DNA of 34,781 nucleotides from an uncultured virus (IMG/VR IMGVR_UViG_3300005512_000007) (IMGVR_UViG_3300005512_000007); one strand, 5' to 3'. Positions 5,805 through 34,189 are shown, numbered from the stretch's first letter. A program made the numbers and translations. Notes: generated by a model not told the origin, from the letters alone.

Positions 5805-7091
5805 TCAGACGACGCTGTCGGTTGCGTCGGTGGACGGAGCCGTGGCAGGAGCCTCGGCAGGACCGAAGACGCTCGTCGGGTACTCAGCCCTGAGCACGTC
5901 GAGGAAGCCTCGGTCTTCGATGATGGTCTGGACTCGCTCACGCTCGGCAGGAGGGAACATGCCGGTGAACACCCAGATGGCGTTGTCCACGCCGAACGTG
6001 GCGCAGTCAGCGTTGAGGCGCTGGAGGGCGCTGGTACCGACCGGCGTGGTCAGGACTCGCTGGTTGCGAGCCTCACGGATCGCACTGCCGATGCCACGGA
6101 CGGTGGGCGACGGGACGAGGGTCTCCTCGACGTTGTCGGCGTAGTCCCACGGCATCCAGCGGAACCGGTTGGTGCTGGCCTCGGCCATCGACTGCGTGCC
6201 CTTGTAGCCGGGGTTGATCGTGGCGAGGACCCAGAGGTTGGGGTTGGCCTTGATGACCTCGGGGGCATACCCACCGTGACCGTCGGGCACCGCTCGCTGG
6301 TAGTTCACGAACGAGCGCCGGTCGTCGAGCACGGGGTGCAGGGCAGTGGCCTGCGACGGAGCGACGGCGTTCCACTCGTCGAGGTAGAGGAAGCCACCGC
6401 AGTGGAGGGCACGAGGCACGAGGCCGTCCATCCAGACGAGGCTCTCTCGACCATCGACCACGACGGCGCTGGTCATGCCGAAGAGGTCGTAGTTGGAGAT
6501 GCCCACCGAGCCGTTCAGGGTGAAGATCGGGTACGGCTTGGGCAGGCCGTCACGCTCGGCTGAGAGCACGGCGAGGACCTGAACGAGCATGGTCTTGCCC
6601 GACTGGGTCTCACCGACGAGGGCGACGTTGGGGCTGTAGCCACGGCTGTCACGCTGGTCTCGCATGTGGAGCAGGTAGTCCACGTCGGTCAGGCCACCGG
6701 CCACGACTCGACTGACGTACTGCTTGACCACGTCAGTCGGGGGACGGAACTGGTCGAGCGCAGGGTCCATCGGATCGGTGATGGACTGGGCCTCGACGAG
6801 GCGACCCTGCTCGATGACGCTCAGGTCAGCGCCGACCGGCACTGGGGCTGGAGCCACCGGAGCAGGGAGCGGAGCAGGAGCGACGGACGGCAGTTCCAGT
6901 TGACGGGGGAGCACCCACGTCTCGTGGGCACTGCCGTTGGGACCGAGGCCCTCGATGGCGACGAGGACCTTGCGCTGGTGCTCGGTTCCATCGGGAGCCA
7001 CGTCGGGGCTGACGACGGAAGCGAGGTGGCCCTCGAAGGGACCGCTGGTGATCTGGACGGTGAGTCCACGGGTCAGGTGCTTGGCTTTCAT
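5805..7091 (-). CDS. MoxR/CbbQ/CobS-like AAA+ ATPase
   Basis: Walker A GETQSGKT, Walker B LYLDEWN, sensor ATINPGY, Arg finger STNRF. Confidence 0.9.
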   Translation of the reverse strand: MKAKHLTRGLTVQITSGPFEGHLASVVSPDVAPDGTEHQRKVLVAIEGLGPNGSAHETWVLPRQLELPSVAPAPLPAPVAPAPVPVGADLSVIEQGRLVEAQSITDPMDPALDQFRPPTDVVKQYVSRVVAGGLTDVDYLLHMRDQRDSRGYSPNVALVGETQSGKTMLVQVLAVLSAERDGLPKPYPIFTLNGSVGISNYDLFGMTSAVVVDGRESLVWMDGLVPRALHCGGFLYLDEWNAVAPSQATALHPVLDDRRSFVNYQRAVPDGHGGYAPEVIKANPNLWVLATINPGYKGTQSMAEASTNRFRWMPWDYADNVEETLVPSPTVRGIGSAIREARNQRVLTTPVGTSALQRLNADCATFGVDNAIWVFTGMFPPAERERVQTIIEDRGFLDVLRAEYPTSVFGPAEAPATAPSTDATDSVV

Positions 7092-15502: not shown

Positions 15503-15784
15503 ATGCTTGACGATGACCTGCTGACACTGGAGTCGTTTCTTAGCGATTACAGAGAGCGCGATTGGATCAAGAAAGCCGCGTGTCGCGGCATGGATACCGA
15601 TCTGTTCTTTCCTGAGCGTGGCGAATCTACCCGAGAAGCCAAGGCTGTCTGTGAAACCTGCACGGTAAGACAGGAGTGCGGGGAATATGGGTTTATGGAA
15701 AAGATCGGCATTTGGGGTGGCACTACTGAGTACTACCGACGCCGCATCCGAAGCCAAAATCACAAAGAGTTATCCACAGGGTAA
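15503..15784 (+). CDS. whiB: WhiB-family Fe-S transcription factor
   Basis: AAC..DTDLFFP...AKAVCETCTVRQEC...GIWGG. Confidence 0.95.
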   Translation: MLDDDLLTLESFLSDYRERDWIKKAACRGMDTDLFFPERGESTREAKAVCETCTVRQECGEYGFMEKIGIWGGTTEYYRRRIRSQNHKELSTG

Positions 15785-15837
15785 TTAACAAAGCACACCA
15801 GTAGCAATTTGCCATATTAGGTGTGATATACTAAGGG

Positions 15838-15940
15838 TCTCGACAGTGCGCTCCCCACAGTATGGGGTGGGTAGATGTCTCCACCAGACACAGAGCGCAT
15901 GTACAGGGAGGGGGGTTTCGGCCCCCCTCCCTTTCTCTTT
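15838..15940 (+). ncRNA. Candidate ~100-nt structured sRNA
   Basis: Own TGaTATACT extended -10 (15824-15832); multi-stem fold; intrinsic terminator. Confidence 0.5.
15905..15940 (+). terminator. Intrinsic terminator
   Basis: AGGGAGGGGGG-loop-CCCCCCTCCCT followed by TTCTCTTT. Confidence 0.75.
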
Positions 15941-15957
15941 GTATTAGATTACGCCCC

Positions 15958-16245
15958 ATGCGTAATCGGCGTAAAAACAACAGCCCCGAGATAGTCGTGG
16001 TCAGATGGCACGACGCTCACGCCGATTCTGCTGGTACGTGGGTCGAACTCTCCGACATCGACCCAGACCCCTTACTGGTCACGTCAGTTGGAATACTTCT
16101 TCCAGCAACTACGAAACCAAAGCATGTCTCTATCGCCCAGAGTTATGCCGATGACCTATGTGACCACGTCATTCATATACCAGAGAAGATGGTTGTCGAC
16201 GTTACGGTCTTAGGCGTACTGGACAAGCCCGAGAAGTCCTCGTAG
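15958..16245 (+). CDS. Conserved phage hypothetical (VxWxDA motif)
   Basis: VVVRWHDAH...SVGILL...IAQS...IP; leaderless start 7 nt after TAGATT. Confidence 0.7.
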   Translation: MRNRRKNNSPEIVVVRWHDAHADSAGTWVELSDIDPDPLLVTSVGILLPATTKPKHVSIAQSYADDLCDHVIHIPEKMVVDVTVLGVLDKPEKSS

Positions 16246-16248
16246 AAT
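16220..16248 (+). promoter_or_regulatory. Promoter TGGACA-17-TAGAAT for the tRNA locus
   Basis: Ends 8 nt before the tRNA fragment. Confidence 0.65.
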
Positions 16249-16256
16249 CTGCCGAG

Positions 16257-16288
16257 GCCCGTGTAGCCCAATGGCAGAGGCAGGTGTC
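16257..16288 (+). pseudogene. 5' half of a tRNA (Leu-like), truncated at the anticodon loop
   Basis: GCCCGTG-TA-GCCCAATGGCAGAGGC-A-GGTGT-C: acceptor 5' strand, D arm and anticodon 5' stem; no matching 3' half found. Confidence 0.75.
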
Positions 16289-16304
16289 GTGGTATACTTG
16301 ATTT

Positions 16305-16790
16305 ATGGATAGTAAATCTTACACAGACAACGAACTGATAGATGCCGTGAAGTCCTCTTTCAGTATTAGCGAAGTACTTAGACGTCTTGGTCTACAGCCT
16401 GCGGGCGGCAACTACAGAGTATTCCACCAAAACGTAAACAGGTTAGGATTAGACACCTCTCATTTTACGGGACAAAAATGGAGAAAAGGAGCCAGAGAAT
16501 CAGTAGTTAAACGCAAGCCGCTAGAAGAGTTACTTGTTTCAAACAGTTCGTACAGCACCTATAGACTTAAGAACAGACTAATAGAAGAAGGCGTTTTTGA
16601 GAGGAAGTGCTCAAGTTGCGGACTGTTGGAGTGGATGGGTGTTCCTATGCCGTTAGAGTTAGAGCACATTAACGGCACCAACAATGACCACAGGCTTGAA
16701 AATCTATGCCTTTTGTGTCCGAATTGCCACGCCCTGACAAGTACCTACAGGGGTAGAAACAAGAAAAAGCGAGCGGGATTGGTGGAATAG
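16305..16790 (+). CDS. HNH endonuclease with N-terminal DNA-binding domain, tRNA-associated
   Basis: CSSC...LELEHING..NDHRLENL.LLCPNCH; AT-richer than neighbours; last 6 codons overlap tRNA-Leu. Confidence 0.92.
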   Translation: MDSKSYTDNELIDAVKSSFSISEVLRRLGLQPAGGNYRVFHQNVNRLGLDTSHFTGQKWRKGARESVVKRKPLEELLVSNSSYSTYRLKNRLIEEGVFERKCSSCGLLEWMGVPMPLELEHINGTNNDHRLENLCLLCPNCHALTSTYRGRNKKKRAGLVE

Positions 16791-16856
16791 GCAGACACGA
16801 GGGTCTTAAACACCCTTGCTCATAAGAGCGTACCGGTTCAAGTCCGGTATCCCGTA
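16773..16856 (+). tRNA. tRNA-Leu(UAA)
   Basis: Acceptor GCGGGAT/ATCCCGT; anticodon stem AGGGT/ACCCT with loop CT-TAA-AC; long variable arm; ACCGG-TTCAAGT-CCGGT; discriminator A. Confidence 0.93.
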
Positions 16857-16861
16857 CCCAA

Positions 16862-16941
16862 GCCGCCAGATCCTAAGGGGACCGGTTGTCCCCAGTTGTC
16901 TTATCAACAACCGGATGAGGGTTCAACTCCTACTGGCGGTA
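16862..16941 (+). tRNA. Non-canonical tRNA-like gene, anticodon UAU (Ile)
   Basis: Acceptor GCCGCCA/TGGCGGT; anticodon arm GTTGT-CTTATCA-ACAAC; T loop TTCAACT; aberrant D region. Confidence 0.65.
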
Positions 16942-17271
16942 CTACCGCTCGGGGATGAACACCGTCTCCCCGACGAGATCGGTGGCCTCCCGCATACCGT
17001 TCCACTGGTAGTAGCGCTTGAGGTACAGGTGAACCGGTTGGTTCTTGAACATGCGAGCGATCAGGTCACGGGTCTGCTCACCGTCTTCGACGGTCGTGGA
17101 CCTACCGGCCTTGTTGGGGACCTCGATGCGAGTACCGGGTACCCACTGCTCGGGGTTGTACTTCAGCAAGATCGCGTAGCGAGACCCGTCTCCGTAGACC
17201 ACCTCGGCCACACTCCGGGGAGTGTCCCCGTCCTGAAGGAGGAACGTACCGTGACTTCTGTGCTCAATCAT
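16942..17271 (-). CDS. LysM-like (tandem) protein
   Basis: LQDGDTPRSVAEVVYGDGSRYAILLKYN...PGTRIEVP plus a second degenerate repeat; AAGGAG SD. Confidence 0.7.
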   Translation of the reverse strand: MIEHRSHGTFLLQDGDTPRSVAEVVYGDGSRYAILLKYNPEQWVPGTRIEVPNKAGRSTTVEDGEQTRDLIARMFKNQPVHLYLKRYYQWNGMREATDLVGETVFIPER

Positions 17272-17292
17272 GAAACCTTCTTTCTCCTTGTT

Positions 17293-17410
17293 CTGGAAAC
17301 CGTAGGCGACCGTAGGGAGCCTACCCTCAGACGCTCGTGCGGAGCACGGGCTGTCTTATTGCCTCGCTTCGCTCGGCGGAGGCTCGCGCAAGCGCTCGCC
17401 TCGTTTTCAG
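17293..17410. other. Cluster of four hairpins with GNA triloops and/or tandem G.A pairs
   Basis: Hairpins at 17302-17324, 17329-17356, 17361-17377, 17379-17402. Confidence 0.65.
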
Positions 17411-17570
17411 GCTTTCGGGAACCTCTTCCCCCTTGACCACCTTCTACAAGTTTCCAGTTTACCGGACCTGTCAAGTACCCCCCCCAAGAAAATGTAAAGG
17501 GGGCCGCTATTTCCTACTTGGGATGGTTGCGATCAGCCATAATAAGTACACCCGCCTTGAGGAGGTCCGC

Positions 17571-17696
17571 ATGGAACAGTGTGAATGGTGCGGAGGGCCG
17601 ATGGTCCCCGAACACGCGCACTACAAGTGCCGACAGTGCGGGCAGCGGGATAGTTGTTGCGACGGCGGGGAGTGCAGGCCCAATGAAAAAGACTGA
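17571..17696 (+). CDS. Small Zn-ribbon protein (41 aa)
   Basis: GGAGG SD; CEWC...HYKCRQC...CC. Confidence 0.7.
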   Translation: MEQCEWCGGPMVPEHAHYKCRQCGQRDSCCDGGECRPNEKD

Positions 17697-18069
17697 GATG
17701 AACTACACGGTCACCCGAGGCGAGGTCTGGGAGCGCCTGATCATCGTCAAGGATCGCCGCACGCGGCGTAAGCGGGTTCCAGTCGAAGCAGCCGCCAGCG
17801 TCAAGATCGGTGACACTGCCTATCAAATCCCCGTGACGATTACTTCCGAGGGCGGCATCCTGCTGTCCATGACTCCCGCTAACACGGAGTGGCTGGCAGA
17901 CGGCACCTACAATTGGGACCTCGTCGCCACGATTAGCCGCTCTGCCCTACTCACTTCGACGCCTCTGGCTGAGACCGTCGTCGTCTACGGCACCTTGACG
18001 GTGTCGACGTACGACAACATCACCCCGATGGACTCTGACGGCGTCACGACCGCTCTGGAGACCGTCTGA
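17683..18069 (+). CDS. Beta-sandwich virion adaptor-like protein (BppU-N-like), paralogous to 28725
   Basis: RGE.W...G.ILLS.TP..T..L..G.Y.WDL...G.L.V. Confidence 0.6.
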   Translation: MKKTEMNYTVTRGEVWERLIIVKDRRTRRKRVPVEAAASVKIGDTAYQIPVTITSEGGILLSMTPANTEWLADGTYNWDLVATISRSALLTSTPLAETVVVYGTLTVSTYDNITPMDSDGVTTALETV

Positions 18070-32733: not shown

Positions 32734-34025
32734 TGGCTGTTTCTTCTACTTCTTCAGGTTCTCTTAAAACAGGGGTATGTCTTTCAACAGACCGCCCCGA
32801 TAACCCTTATAACGGTCAGGTTATCTATGAGACCGATACCAACCGCACGTTGATTTATGATAATTCTGCGTGGGTTGTTATTTCTGACCCGGCTTTGTTG
32901 TCGTTCTCTGGCTCTGCTGCCTCAGTCACAGGTAACTTGACTGGAAATGTCACGGGCGATTTGACTGGGGACGTTGCTGCTTCCGCTGTGACTATTGGTG
33001 GGGAGTATATGACTCCGTATGCGGGTCGTAGGAACCTGTTGTATAACGGCGCGATGCAGGTAGCGCAGAGAAGTACGTCTTCTGCTGGGATCACGTCAAC
33101 TGGCTACACTACTGCGGATAGATGGGCCTCTGACGTTATTGCACTTGGGGCTTGGACTCAGAGCGTTGAGAATGATGCCCCGACTGGTCTGGGTTTCCGT
33201 AAATCGTTGAAGATGCTGTGTACGACTGCTGATGCTGCTCCTGCTTCTGGTTATCGCGTTGGCGTAACGCAACGTCTTGAAGGTCAAGATTTGCAGCAGA
33301 TCAAGAAAGGCACGTCTGCCGCAGAGCAGTTGACTTTGTCGTTTTGGGTGAAGTCAAATGTAACCGGAACTTACATTGTCGAATTATTTGATATAGATAA
33401 TACCCGCTATGTTTCTGCTTCGTATTCCGTGTCTGCGTCTGCGACATGGGAAAAGAAAACCATTACGTTCCCTGCTGATACGACTGGATCGTTCAATAAC
33501 GATAATGGTCATTCTTTGTCAATGTTTTTTTGGTTGGGTGCAGGTAGTTCCTATTCGTCTGGTTCTCCGTTGAACACTTCATGGGGCGCGCCCGGAGATA
33601 ACACCCGTATTACGGGTCAAACTAATCTTGCTGCTGCTACCAACAACTATTGGCAGATCACAGGTGTCCAACTAGAACTTGGTGATAAGGCGACCCCGTT
33701 TGAACATCGTTCTTATGGGGAAGAGTTAGCGTTGTGTCAGAGGTATTATGAAAACTTCTGGGCTGCATACACGGGATGGCCTTACAGTACTGCAGCCGCT
33801 AGTTTTGGAGTGAATTGGAAAGTGCTAAAACGAGTATCACCATCATGGACGCTCCAAAGCGGTTATGTGCAGTACGGACCGGGAGGACAACAAAACATGT
33901 CTTCATTGGTGGGCCTTCAAACCCATCCGCAAGGTGCGTTGGTTTATCTTACCGTTCCGAGCGGATTTACTGTAAACAGCGGATGTGTCGGCGCTGTTGG
34001 TATTCATGTGGATGCTGAGTTATGA
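32730..34025 (+). CDS. Fibre/receptor-binding protein 2 with carbohydrate-binding-like domain
   Basis: Same N-module; RNLLYNGAMQVAQR...DRW...GVQLE.G..ATPFEHRSYGEELALCQRYY. Confidence 0.8.
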   Translation: MMAVSSTSSGSLKTGVCLSTDRPDNPYNGQVIYETDTNRTLIYDNSAWVVISDPALLSFSGSAASVTGNLTGNVTGDLTGDVAASAVTIGGEYMTPYAGRRNLLYNGAMQVAQRSTSSAGITSTGYTTADRWASDVIALGAWTQSVENDAPTGLGFRKSLKMLCTTADAAPASGYRVGVTQRLEGQDLQQIKKGTSAAEQLTLSFWVKSNVTGTYIVELFDIDNTRYVSASYSVSASATWEKKTITFPADTTGSFNNDNGHSLSMFFWLGAGSSYSSGSPLNTSWGAPGDNTRITGQTNLAAATNNYWQITGVQLELGDKATPFEHRSYGEELALCQRYYENFWAAYTGWPYSTAAASFGVNWKVLKRVSPSWTLQSGYVQYGPGGQQNMSSLVGLQTHPQGALVYLTVPSGFTVNSGCVGAVGIHVDAEL

Positions 34026-34189
34026 CATACCAAATTAAAACTGCAACAGAGTTTACTGATGGGTTTGTGATTGACGTTAATAATTCTTTGTGGATTCCAA
34101 TAGACGAAGGAAACAGAAACTACAGAGAATACCTTGCATGGCTAGAAGAGGGCAACGTCCCCGAAGAATGGAACCCGGGAGGTGAATGA
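34022..34189 (+). CDS. Fibre chaperone-like small protein (55 aa)
   Basis: Manual translation ...IPIDEGNRNYREYLAWLEEGNVP...; coupled at both ends. Confidence 0.75.
   Translation: MTYQIKTATEFTDGFVIDVNNSLWIPIDEGNRNYREYLAWLEEGNVPEEWNPGGE

Follow-up and report, generated by a model that had tools for sequence, protein, structure and literature searches.

How did an HNH endonuclease gene come to lie in a broken tRNA gene, with its stop codon inside a second, intact tRNA gene? We examined this question in a stretch of 34,781 nucleotides (hereafter, the window), which forms the final 34.8 kb of a 96.8-kb record of an uncultured virus. The record contains terminase and WhiB genes, and the latter suggests that the phage has an actinobacterial host. 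Sequencing runs holding the region were labelled estuary, aquatic or seawater, or had no label. A strong terminator-like hairpin of 12 pairs (15905-15932, + strand) is located 3' of the WhiB gene and is predicted to insulate the downstream small gene and tRNA unit from it.

All features of the locus are on the + strand. A promoter-like site of the resident tRNA gene (TGGACA-17-TAGAAT, 16220..16248) has 10 of 12 consensus matches, and three such sites occurred in 1.8 kb compared with 1.0 in shuffled sequences. The site belongs to the flank and not to the cassette, as the same motif is present in the empty allele of the viral contigs L033-L035. Only nucleotides 1-28 of the resident short-arm tRNA-Leu(UAA) remain (16257..16284), and 27 of these 28 are identical to the intact gene of L033-L035. 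A 577-bp cassette (16285..16861), delimited by blastn against these contigs and by joints in sequencing runs, replaces the final 46 nt of the gene. The cassette has a single ORF and consists of a promoter, a leaderless HNH endonuclease gene of 161 aa (16305..16790) and a new, long-arm tRNA-Leu(UAA) (16773..16856 by ARAGORN, end at 16856/58; Rfam, 51.5 bits). The predicted HNH promoter (16271..16298) combines a -35-like ATGGCA in the D-loop of the remnant, a 16-nt spacer and a TG-extended -10. The -10 hexamer, TATACT, occupies 16293-16298 (TG extension from 16290), 6 nt before the ATG at 16305. The GC content of the HNH gene was 0.447 (44.7%), compared with mostly 50-68% across the window. These results bear out the preliminary description, which had named a promoter ahead of the cut tRNA and a TGgTATACT element directly before a leaderless, AT-richer HNH gene. 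It had also placed the cut in the anticodon loop. The 5' remnant is present as described, but homology extends only to tRNA nt 28 and takes in just the first two bases of the anticodon stem's 5' strand, short of the loop.

Other short Cys-rich ORFs, endonuclease-like by their N-termini, were seen in G000:C1 at 6133-6663, 33682-34176, 52414-52941, 57824-58315, 58812-59300 and 61573-61911. None of these six matched the window HNH gene by tblastn.

The allele lacking the cassette was reached by a search with the upstream gene; an exact search of viral contigs with the 5' remnant found only an unrelated tRNA-Leu(CAA). The three contigs obtained (L033-L035), with flanks 89-98% alike, all have an intact 74-nt tRNA-Leu(UAA), and blastn homology to the window ends at 16284 and restarts at 16862. 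Flanks of L571, L572 and L575 are just 66-80% alike, yet these contigs have nearly the same intact gene. Thus, the HNH-less allele on which the preliminary description had made its reading depend exists: it was found in all six viral contigs that hold the neighbouring tRNA-like element (6/6), and it recurs in sequencing runs from several studies. Because the more distant contigs keep nearly the same gene, the empty state is ancestral. The relatives hold an intact canonical gene at the site and the window holds the derived state.

Eight runs were examined. The empty joint, 16284 to 16862 with 46 other letters between, was bridged in X1, X4, X12 and X18, and X6 contained matching loose ends; runs X19 and X20 had no coverage of the insertion site. 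The HNH gene was covered in none of the eight runs. None of the three RNA runs examined covered it, and contigs cannot show expression. The only other copy of the filled allele (L129) is 100% identical to the window over 2883 nt and was therefore not counted as independent. At the DNA level, the cassette was not found in cultured phages. The filled allele is rare.

A contig of run X17, which joins window 16284 to 16772, represents a second filled allele: it has the same left junction, followed by 488 letters less than 85% like those of the window. Behind this insert is a carried-type tRNA with 19 differences over 116 nt, and the size and place of the insert suggest a diverged HNH gene. Another X17 contig contains a carried-type tRNA (4 differences) in an unrelated context.

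The junctions were compared with the empty contigs. Microhomology at the right junction is only 3-4 nt (blastn). Identity to L034 was 93.9% over 684 nt before the junction, 96.1% further upstream and 97.3% after it, with no clear co-conversion tract. Base 16272 of the remnant, inside the -35-like hexamer, differs from all six empty contigs and matches the remnant of the related locus L130, a hint that the left crossover may lie a little further left than 16284.

The two tRNA genes differ in form. The resident tRNA-Leu(UAA) has 74 nt and a short variable arm, and the carried one has 84-86 nt and a long variable arm. The carried tRNA had been described as intact and different; this applies to its sequence but not to its isoacceptor, as the broken gene is also a tRNA-Leu(UAA). 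The anticodon arm reads GGGGA CTTAAAA TCCCT in the resident and AGGGT CTTAAAC ACCCT in the carried tRNA. The differences are at positions 27, 31, 38 and 39, the anticodon is the same, and the carried tRNA keeps a normal T loop. The replacement is likely needed by the phage, because the carried tRNA-Leu(UAA) is the only tRNA above the Rfam cut-off in the genome and distant relatives keep the gene.

A flanking tRNA-like element (16862..16942; Rfam tRNA, 22.3 bits, below the cut-off) lies outside the cassette, is common to both alleles and is conserved in L033-L035, L571, L572 and L575. Its acceptor, anticodon (UAU loop) and T arms are normal, and its aberrant D region consists of a 7-nt linker and a 6-bp hairpin. 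The element was missed by ARAGORN with default settings. It is identical or one base off in phages with flanks only 66-80% alike, and is possibly a non-canonical tRNA-Ile(UAU) or a decoy.

A spliced tRNA in the window was considered and rejected. Rfam gave no group I intron at 15700-17700, the intron profile built in this study did not match L129 (the stand-in for the window), and no 3' exon for the remnant was found in the window. Among 23 genome-wide matches to CACGGGY, inspected by eye, none was preceded by a T loop at the right distance. Relaxed ARAGORN with introns returned 45 calls in the whole genome, mostly spurious, and these were set aside. The window contains no ribozyme core between the 5' exon and a pairing 3' exon, whereas such a core surrounds 19 relatives.

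The cassette protein matched Pfam HNH at E=0.0045, below the curated cut-off, and 2455 proteins matched the cassette protein at E<=1e-20. C102, C105, H121, C138, C141 and H142 were invariant, and N133 was conserved in at least 90%, across 122 aligned sequences. In the structure model (pLDDT 88), three helices make up the N-terminal part and a finger the C-terminal part; these are predicted to be a DNA-binding domain and a zinc-knuckle His-Me finger, respectively. Structure searches returned a general helix-turn-helix and HNH likeness, with no match reaching E<=0.001 and every Z below 5; matches to the N-terminal fold were weak (Z 3-4). A GIY-YIG domain is absent, as Pfam gives HNH only and the conserved motif is the zinc-knuckle His-Me finger. 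Residues 69-152 (84 aa) are 50% identical to T5 F-TflIV (E 6e-28), which has no match to residues 1-68. T5 F-TflI and F-TflII had no significant match to the HNH protein. The title of a cited paper on F-TflIV reportedly calls it a site-specific endonuclease. In GenBank, F-TflIV is annotated as an H-N-H endonuclease.

To place the cassette in its family, we gathered 199 loci. Two viral scans contributed 30 of 31 hits and the 80 best of 231, respectively, and a metagenome search contributed the 80 best of at least 512. Four of 5 genome hits and 4 of 232 phage records were added, along with the window. L032 and L128 were weak matches and were left out before the counts. Removal of duplicates by the last 90 residues left 149 distinct loci. 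Exclusion of 35 loci matching only the C-terminal core left 114 that match from the N-terminus, among which L129 stands for the window.

Full-length homologs were associated with one isoacceptor, with 88 of the 114 loci at a Leu(UAA) gene. That gene was recoded or intron-interrupted in 75 of the 88. Forty-one loci had an intact Leu(UAA) with a non-canonical arm no more than 200 nt away, 13 were beside a canonical one, 15 were beside an intron-bearing one and 19 were inside the intron; the other 26 were elsewhere (a Gln-UUG clade, other tRNAs and contig ends). L057, L205 and L206 were classed as inside the intron after exon pairing, L206 by its protein and 5' exon identity with L205. Clustering at 80% identity left 96 loci, distributed as 37, 12, 14, 12 and 21 in the order of 41 to 26 above, and 63 of 75 Leu(UAA) loci were still recoded or intron-interrupted. 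The Leu(UAA) linkage spans 34-68% protein identity and both orientations.

The introns were matched by Rfam Intron_gpI in 5 of 20 loci (50.3, 47.9, 44.5, 28.3 and 28.0 bits; cut-off 50). An intron profile was built from 8 loci, one with extra upstream sequence. In 16 antisense loci, and in one sense locus of partial length, this profile is split by the HNH gene at a single internal position, and within the Leu(UAA) intron the gene occurs at two different positions. Viral contigs with the HNH gene antisense inside a group I intron in tRNA-Leu(UAA) were L049, L054, L055, L067, L007 and L079. The gene was inside the intron in sense in L057 and L106, and beside the intron in L052, L056 and L072. 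A GOLLD RNA (213 bits) occurs in L185 (2202-2592, - strand); it belongs to a tRNA array, and an intron-encoded family member is located about 500 nt away.

A fragment scan for tRNA remnants, in which in-gene controls scored at most 14 and 15, showed that 10 of the 20 same-strand loci have the layout of the window (5' remnant, HNH gene and intact Leu(UAA)). In addition, three of the ten (L130, L044 and L004) keep a 3' remnant behind the carried tRNA. The mirror layout was found in L135, L186 and L065, and an intron-bearing replacement in L142. The remnants end at tRNA nt 26-35. The closest relative, L130, is sister to the window protein (68% aa identity; SH-aLRT, 99) and carries the tRNA lineage of the window, here placed within another resident Leu gene whose surroundings are unrelated. 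Thus, the HNH gene and its tRNA travel together. The tree interleaves the layouts and is weakly resolved (quick search, many open branches).

More distant members go with other tRNAs, namely Thr(UGU), Gln(UUG) or Lys(UUU), and the remnant-plus-replacement layout recurs in some of them. Loci of the sister subfamilies were L009, L011, L088, L097, L098 and L102; L012-L031; and L110-L122. The Gln(UUG) subfamily has an antisense overlap of 20-26 nt and a second 5' remnant. In L017, a remnant is followed by a TATAAATA promoter, the HNH gene and an intact Thr(UGU). In L043 (Dulem virus 42, ~1405-2030) and L013 (~1365-1835), a tRNA 5' half precedes the HNH gene and a 3' half that pairs with it follows; the HNH stop is in the anticodon loop, and there is no intron core and no replacement tRNA within 1.5 kb; in L043, short complementary stretches flank the insert. 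L160 (~1648-1760) has a tRNA-Leu(UAA) after the HNH gene with an insertion of ~22 nt in the anticodon loop, possibly a further way to break the target site.

We compared the anticodon arms of nuclease-linked genes with those of viral Leu(UAA) genes in general. The canonical arm, GAY-TTAAAA-TY, was defined from the first background scan. The background sets were selected by D-loop patterns from the matches listed (at most 120 loci per set), and some flanks were short. Among these background genes with no homolog in their flanks, 259 of 318 had the canonical arm, compared with 13 of 52 nuclease-linked genes (p=2e-15). By scan, the canonical share was 98/107, 82/102 and 79/109 distinct viral Leu(UAA) genes, and a stricter canonical form gave 246/318 for the background and 9/52 for linked genes. 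In pattern-matched subsets, which are small samples, 3/7 (p=0.04), 4/11 (p=0.03) and 4/6 (p=0.10) linked genes were canonical. Non-canonical arms also occurred with no HNH family member nearby in 59 of the 318 background genes. A scan of 93 ORFs for other nucleases beside them found Pfam nuclease domains in 3/43 non-canonical and 2/43 sampled canonical cases (plus one SNase in the latter), and thus gave no signal. Background genes with a strong full-length homolog adjacent (L251, L513 and L526) were all non-canonical (3/3). Nine had weaker or partial hits, of which seven or eight were canonical, and 8 of the 12 hit loci were canonical overall.

In all five cassette loci with a recoded carried tRNA and a remnant reaching nt 30-33, the remnant reads GA-CT, which is canonical (5/5). 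Of 36 intron-bearing genes listed, 21 parsed cleanly, and the exon ends were canonical in 21 of 21; the 5' exon of L192 is non-canonical, and other listed cases were one-sided or misparsed. The intron-bearing genes would give a canonical mature RNA while the DNA site is broken, which fits DNA as the target.

Based on these results, the cassette HNH protein is probably a homing endonuclease of the free-standing kind, predicted to cleave the ordinary Leu(UAA) anticodon arm at the DNA level and to spare the recoded copy. Its catalytic residues are intact and accompanied by a predicted DNA-binding part, it is absent from the locus in relatives, and it is located outside any intron or intein. A DNA endonuclease for the canonical Leu(UAA) arm is the simplest account because it covers the isoacceptor linkage, the breaks in one arm, the recoded or intron-broken neighbours and the canonical victims together. 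The earlier proposal of an intronless homing unit aimed at tRNA genes therefore holds as to an intron-free mobile unit with a replacement tRNA, and its targeting is now indicated by linkage and arm recoding.

The cassette may act as follows. In a co-infecting phage, the enzyme would cut the canonical arm (GAY-TTAAAA-TY) or a site close to it, and repair off the cassette-bearing genome would copy the cassette and destroy the target. The carried tRNA has the same anticodon in an arm changed at the four positions given above. With the anticodon restored and the arm altered, the tRNA is retained by the phage, and the cassette would resist the enzyme. In relatives, a group I intron interrupts the same arm and would be an alternative route to immunity. 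First entry would have occurred by non-homologous joining, leaving 28 nt of the tRNA on the left and the 3-4 nt of microhomology on the right, and later spread among near-identical phages would use the flanks. Two observations count against the homing model: the filled allele is rare, whereas a strong drive might be commoner, and 13 of the 52 linked tRNAs keep the canonical arm. The 59 background genes that are non-canonical with no family member nearby also weigh against it, as do the small size of the matched subsets, the lack of a clear co-conversion tract and the restriction of the F-TflIV match to the core.

The rarity and the 13 canonical arms would be expected if the HNH and tRNA genes had moved by neutral hitch-hiking, that is, by illegitimate recombination at a tRNA hot spot with an unspecific or inactive nuclease. 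The absence of HNH coverage in all eight runs and the short right-junction microhomology agree with this explanation, and HNH genes near tRNA arrays are described as common (PMC8421152). Hitch-hiking does not, however, account for the concentration of 88 of 114 loci on one isoacceptor over 34-68% identity and both orientations, or for the clustering of remnant ends at nt 26-35. The excess of recoded arms, the invasion of the intron of the same site at two positions and the intact active site are also contrary to it, and we consider it unlikely.

Homing of a more relaxed kind, as in SegB, is quite unlikely. In this case, the enzyme would cut a motif of many tRNA genes or a distant site, and recoding would reflect host anticodon-nuclease pressure or drift. 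SegB recognises a T-loop motif of many tRNA genes and cuts sites of its own genome at high dose (PMC2330249), free-standing enzymes often cut far from their own gene (PMC2988022), and canonical arms persist beside the gene in 13 loci. In contrast, the T loop of the carried tRNA is normal, and remnants and intron sites converge on the anticodon arm; a recent survey gives no isotype preference for segB (PMC13096335), as opposed to the Leu(UAA) preference found here.

Most unlikely is an RNA toxin with its antidote, in which the HNH enzyme would cut host tRNA-Leu(UAA) and the resistant, recoded phage tRNA would permit host shut-off or competitor exclusion: this accounts for the recoded arm just as well, the HNH nuclease of Septu has been described to cleave tRNA (PMC13096335) and evasion of anticodon nucleases by phage tRNAs is a published idea (PMC10264068), but the tRNA contains an intron in 34 of 114 loci and, once spliced, would be canonical and hence sensitive, an RNase does not explain landing at the DNA level inside tRNA genes, the N-terminus has a predicted helical, DNA-binding-like fold (weak, Z 3-4), and the cassette has no ATPase partner.

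If the homing endonuclease reading is extended to the whole family, including the sister subfamilies on Thr(UGU), Gln(UUG) and Lys(UUU), the family might tentatively be regarded as a natural panel of isoacceptor-specific DNA nucleases.

Several details of the cassette had been given particular weight in the preliminary description. As it stated, the last HNH codons (AGLVE-stop) are within the intact tRNA, forming the first 18 nt of the tRNA-Leu(UAA) at 16773, and the tRNA 5' end falls exactly between codons 156 and 157. Cleavage by RNase P at 16773 would take away the stop together with the five codons before it, which may reduce expression. The proposed self-limitation by tRNA processing is not special to this locus: just 12 of the 20 same-strand relatives have a stop that overlaps a tRNA, with overlaps ranging from 1 to 77 nt and using every reading frame. 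The overlap is already annotated for T5 hegC/hegD, and the same control has been proposed for SegB. The stop-codon overlap appears to be an accessory and not a defining trait.

The five TTA codons said to be read by the carried tRNA were counted again. They are present (5 of 21 Leu codons), but their number is expected from the base composition of the gene (p=0.45). Against a crude ORF set, it exceeds the 122/2236 of the genome (p=0.005); in homologs with a GC content of 0.42-0.48, TTA accounts for 36/168. TTA dependence was therefore ruled out as evidence.

The leaderless start is shared by relatives. In the window, L130, L044 and L003, the remnant D-loop is at the place of the -35, 16-17 nt before an extended -10. 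In the three relatives, the D-loop hexamer is located 28-29 nt, and the -10 6-7 nt, before the ATG. The remnant stub may be kept because its D-loop would serve as the -35 box.

To our knowledge, the repairs known to follow the landing of a homing endonuclease in a needed gene are introns, inteins and duplicated gene ends. Here, the damage is repaired by a whole recoded copy of the target tRNA gene. Members of the same enzyme family are found free-standing, next to the group I intron of that site and within it, a naturally occurring series on which the route to mobile introns by collaborative homing can be studied. Titles of cited works reportedly argue for horizontal transfer of the tRNA-Leu(UAA) intron, and the family is a candidate answer to how this usually ORF-less intron moves. 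It would also be a second cause, besides host anticodon nucleases, of the altered anticodon arms of phage tRNAs. The value of the locus rests on the before-and-after allele pair, which suits a direct cleavage comparison, on the family-wide recoding signal and on the link to the tRNA-Leu(UAA) intron.

Our literature search covered titles and the beginnings of abstracts, in a collection with few subscription journals. Within it, we found no HNH family tied to tRNA-Leu(UAA), no whole-tRNA replacement cassette and no endonuclease in the tRNA-Leu(UAA) intron. HNH genes beside tRNA arrays have been noted (PMC8421152), and free-standing enzymes and collaborative homing have been reviewed (PMC2988022, PMC3984707, PMC10448857). 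A 2014 review places phage group I introns only in protein-coding genes (PMC3984707). Several intron-bearing tRNA loci in this study are viral contigs, in contrast to that review; later work may have reported such cases.

Among known systems, phage T5 also has free-standing HNH genes in its tRNA region, HegA (F-TflIV) and HegC/HegD (F-TflI/F-TflII; GenBank AY543070). As in the window, the ends of hegC and hegD, with the stop, overlap the following tRNA gene, by 14 and 23 nt (AY543070). F-TflIV, classed with the McrA-type group (PMC5714182), differs in its N- and C-terminal domains (70-aa C-terminal extension) and follows a tRNA with a CAU anticodon with no overlap. A broken remnant with a same-anticodon replacement is not annotated in T5 (AY543070), unlike in the window.

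SegB of T4/T6 is likewise a homing endonuclease of the free-standing kind; it cleaves tRNA genes, and nearby tRNA genes spread along with it (PMC2330249). Loss of the stop codon by tRNA maturation has already been proposed for SegB, and for T5 F-TflI, II and IV (PMC2330249). SegB differs in its GIY-YIG fold, in its T-loop motif and in lying between tRNA genes rather than replacing one. Its lack of isotype preference in the published text (PMC13096335) contrasts with the Leu(UAA) linkage of the present family.

In collaborative homing, a free-standing endonuclease and a group I intron that has no ORF share one target, and the accounts in PMC3984707 and PMC10448857 describe protein-coding targets. 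The 15 relatives beside and 19 inside an intron-bearing tRNA-Leu(UAA) form the free-standing to intron-encoded series that this model predicts. The window itself has no ORF-less intron and instead contains the recoded whole-gene copy; the pairing with an intron is found in 15 of the 114 relatives. An intron-encoded homing endonuclease of bacterial chromosomes also addresses the anticodon region of one tRNA isoacceptor gene, with another fold and another tRNA, and is intron-encoded only. Free-standing endonuclease genes of fungal mitochondria (atp9; PMC7487136) likewise bring a duplicate target piece and leave a pseudogene remnant; these are GIY-YIG or LAGLIDADG enzymes with protein-coding targets and a partial, not whole-gene, replacement (PMC7487136). 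The tRNA-cleaving HNH nucleases of defence systems (Septu PtuB, retron Eco7; tRNA-Tyr) act with a partner ATPase, PtuA, which is absent from the one-ORF cassette. From these comparisons, the cassette likely works like a free-standing homing endonuclease, and is neither a SegB, nor an F-TflIV orthologue, nor an intron.
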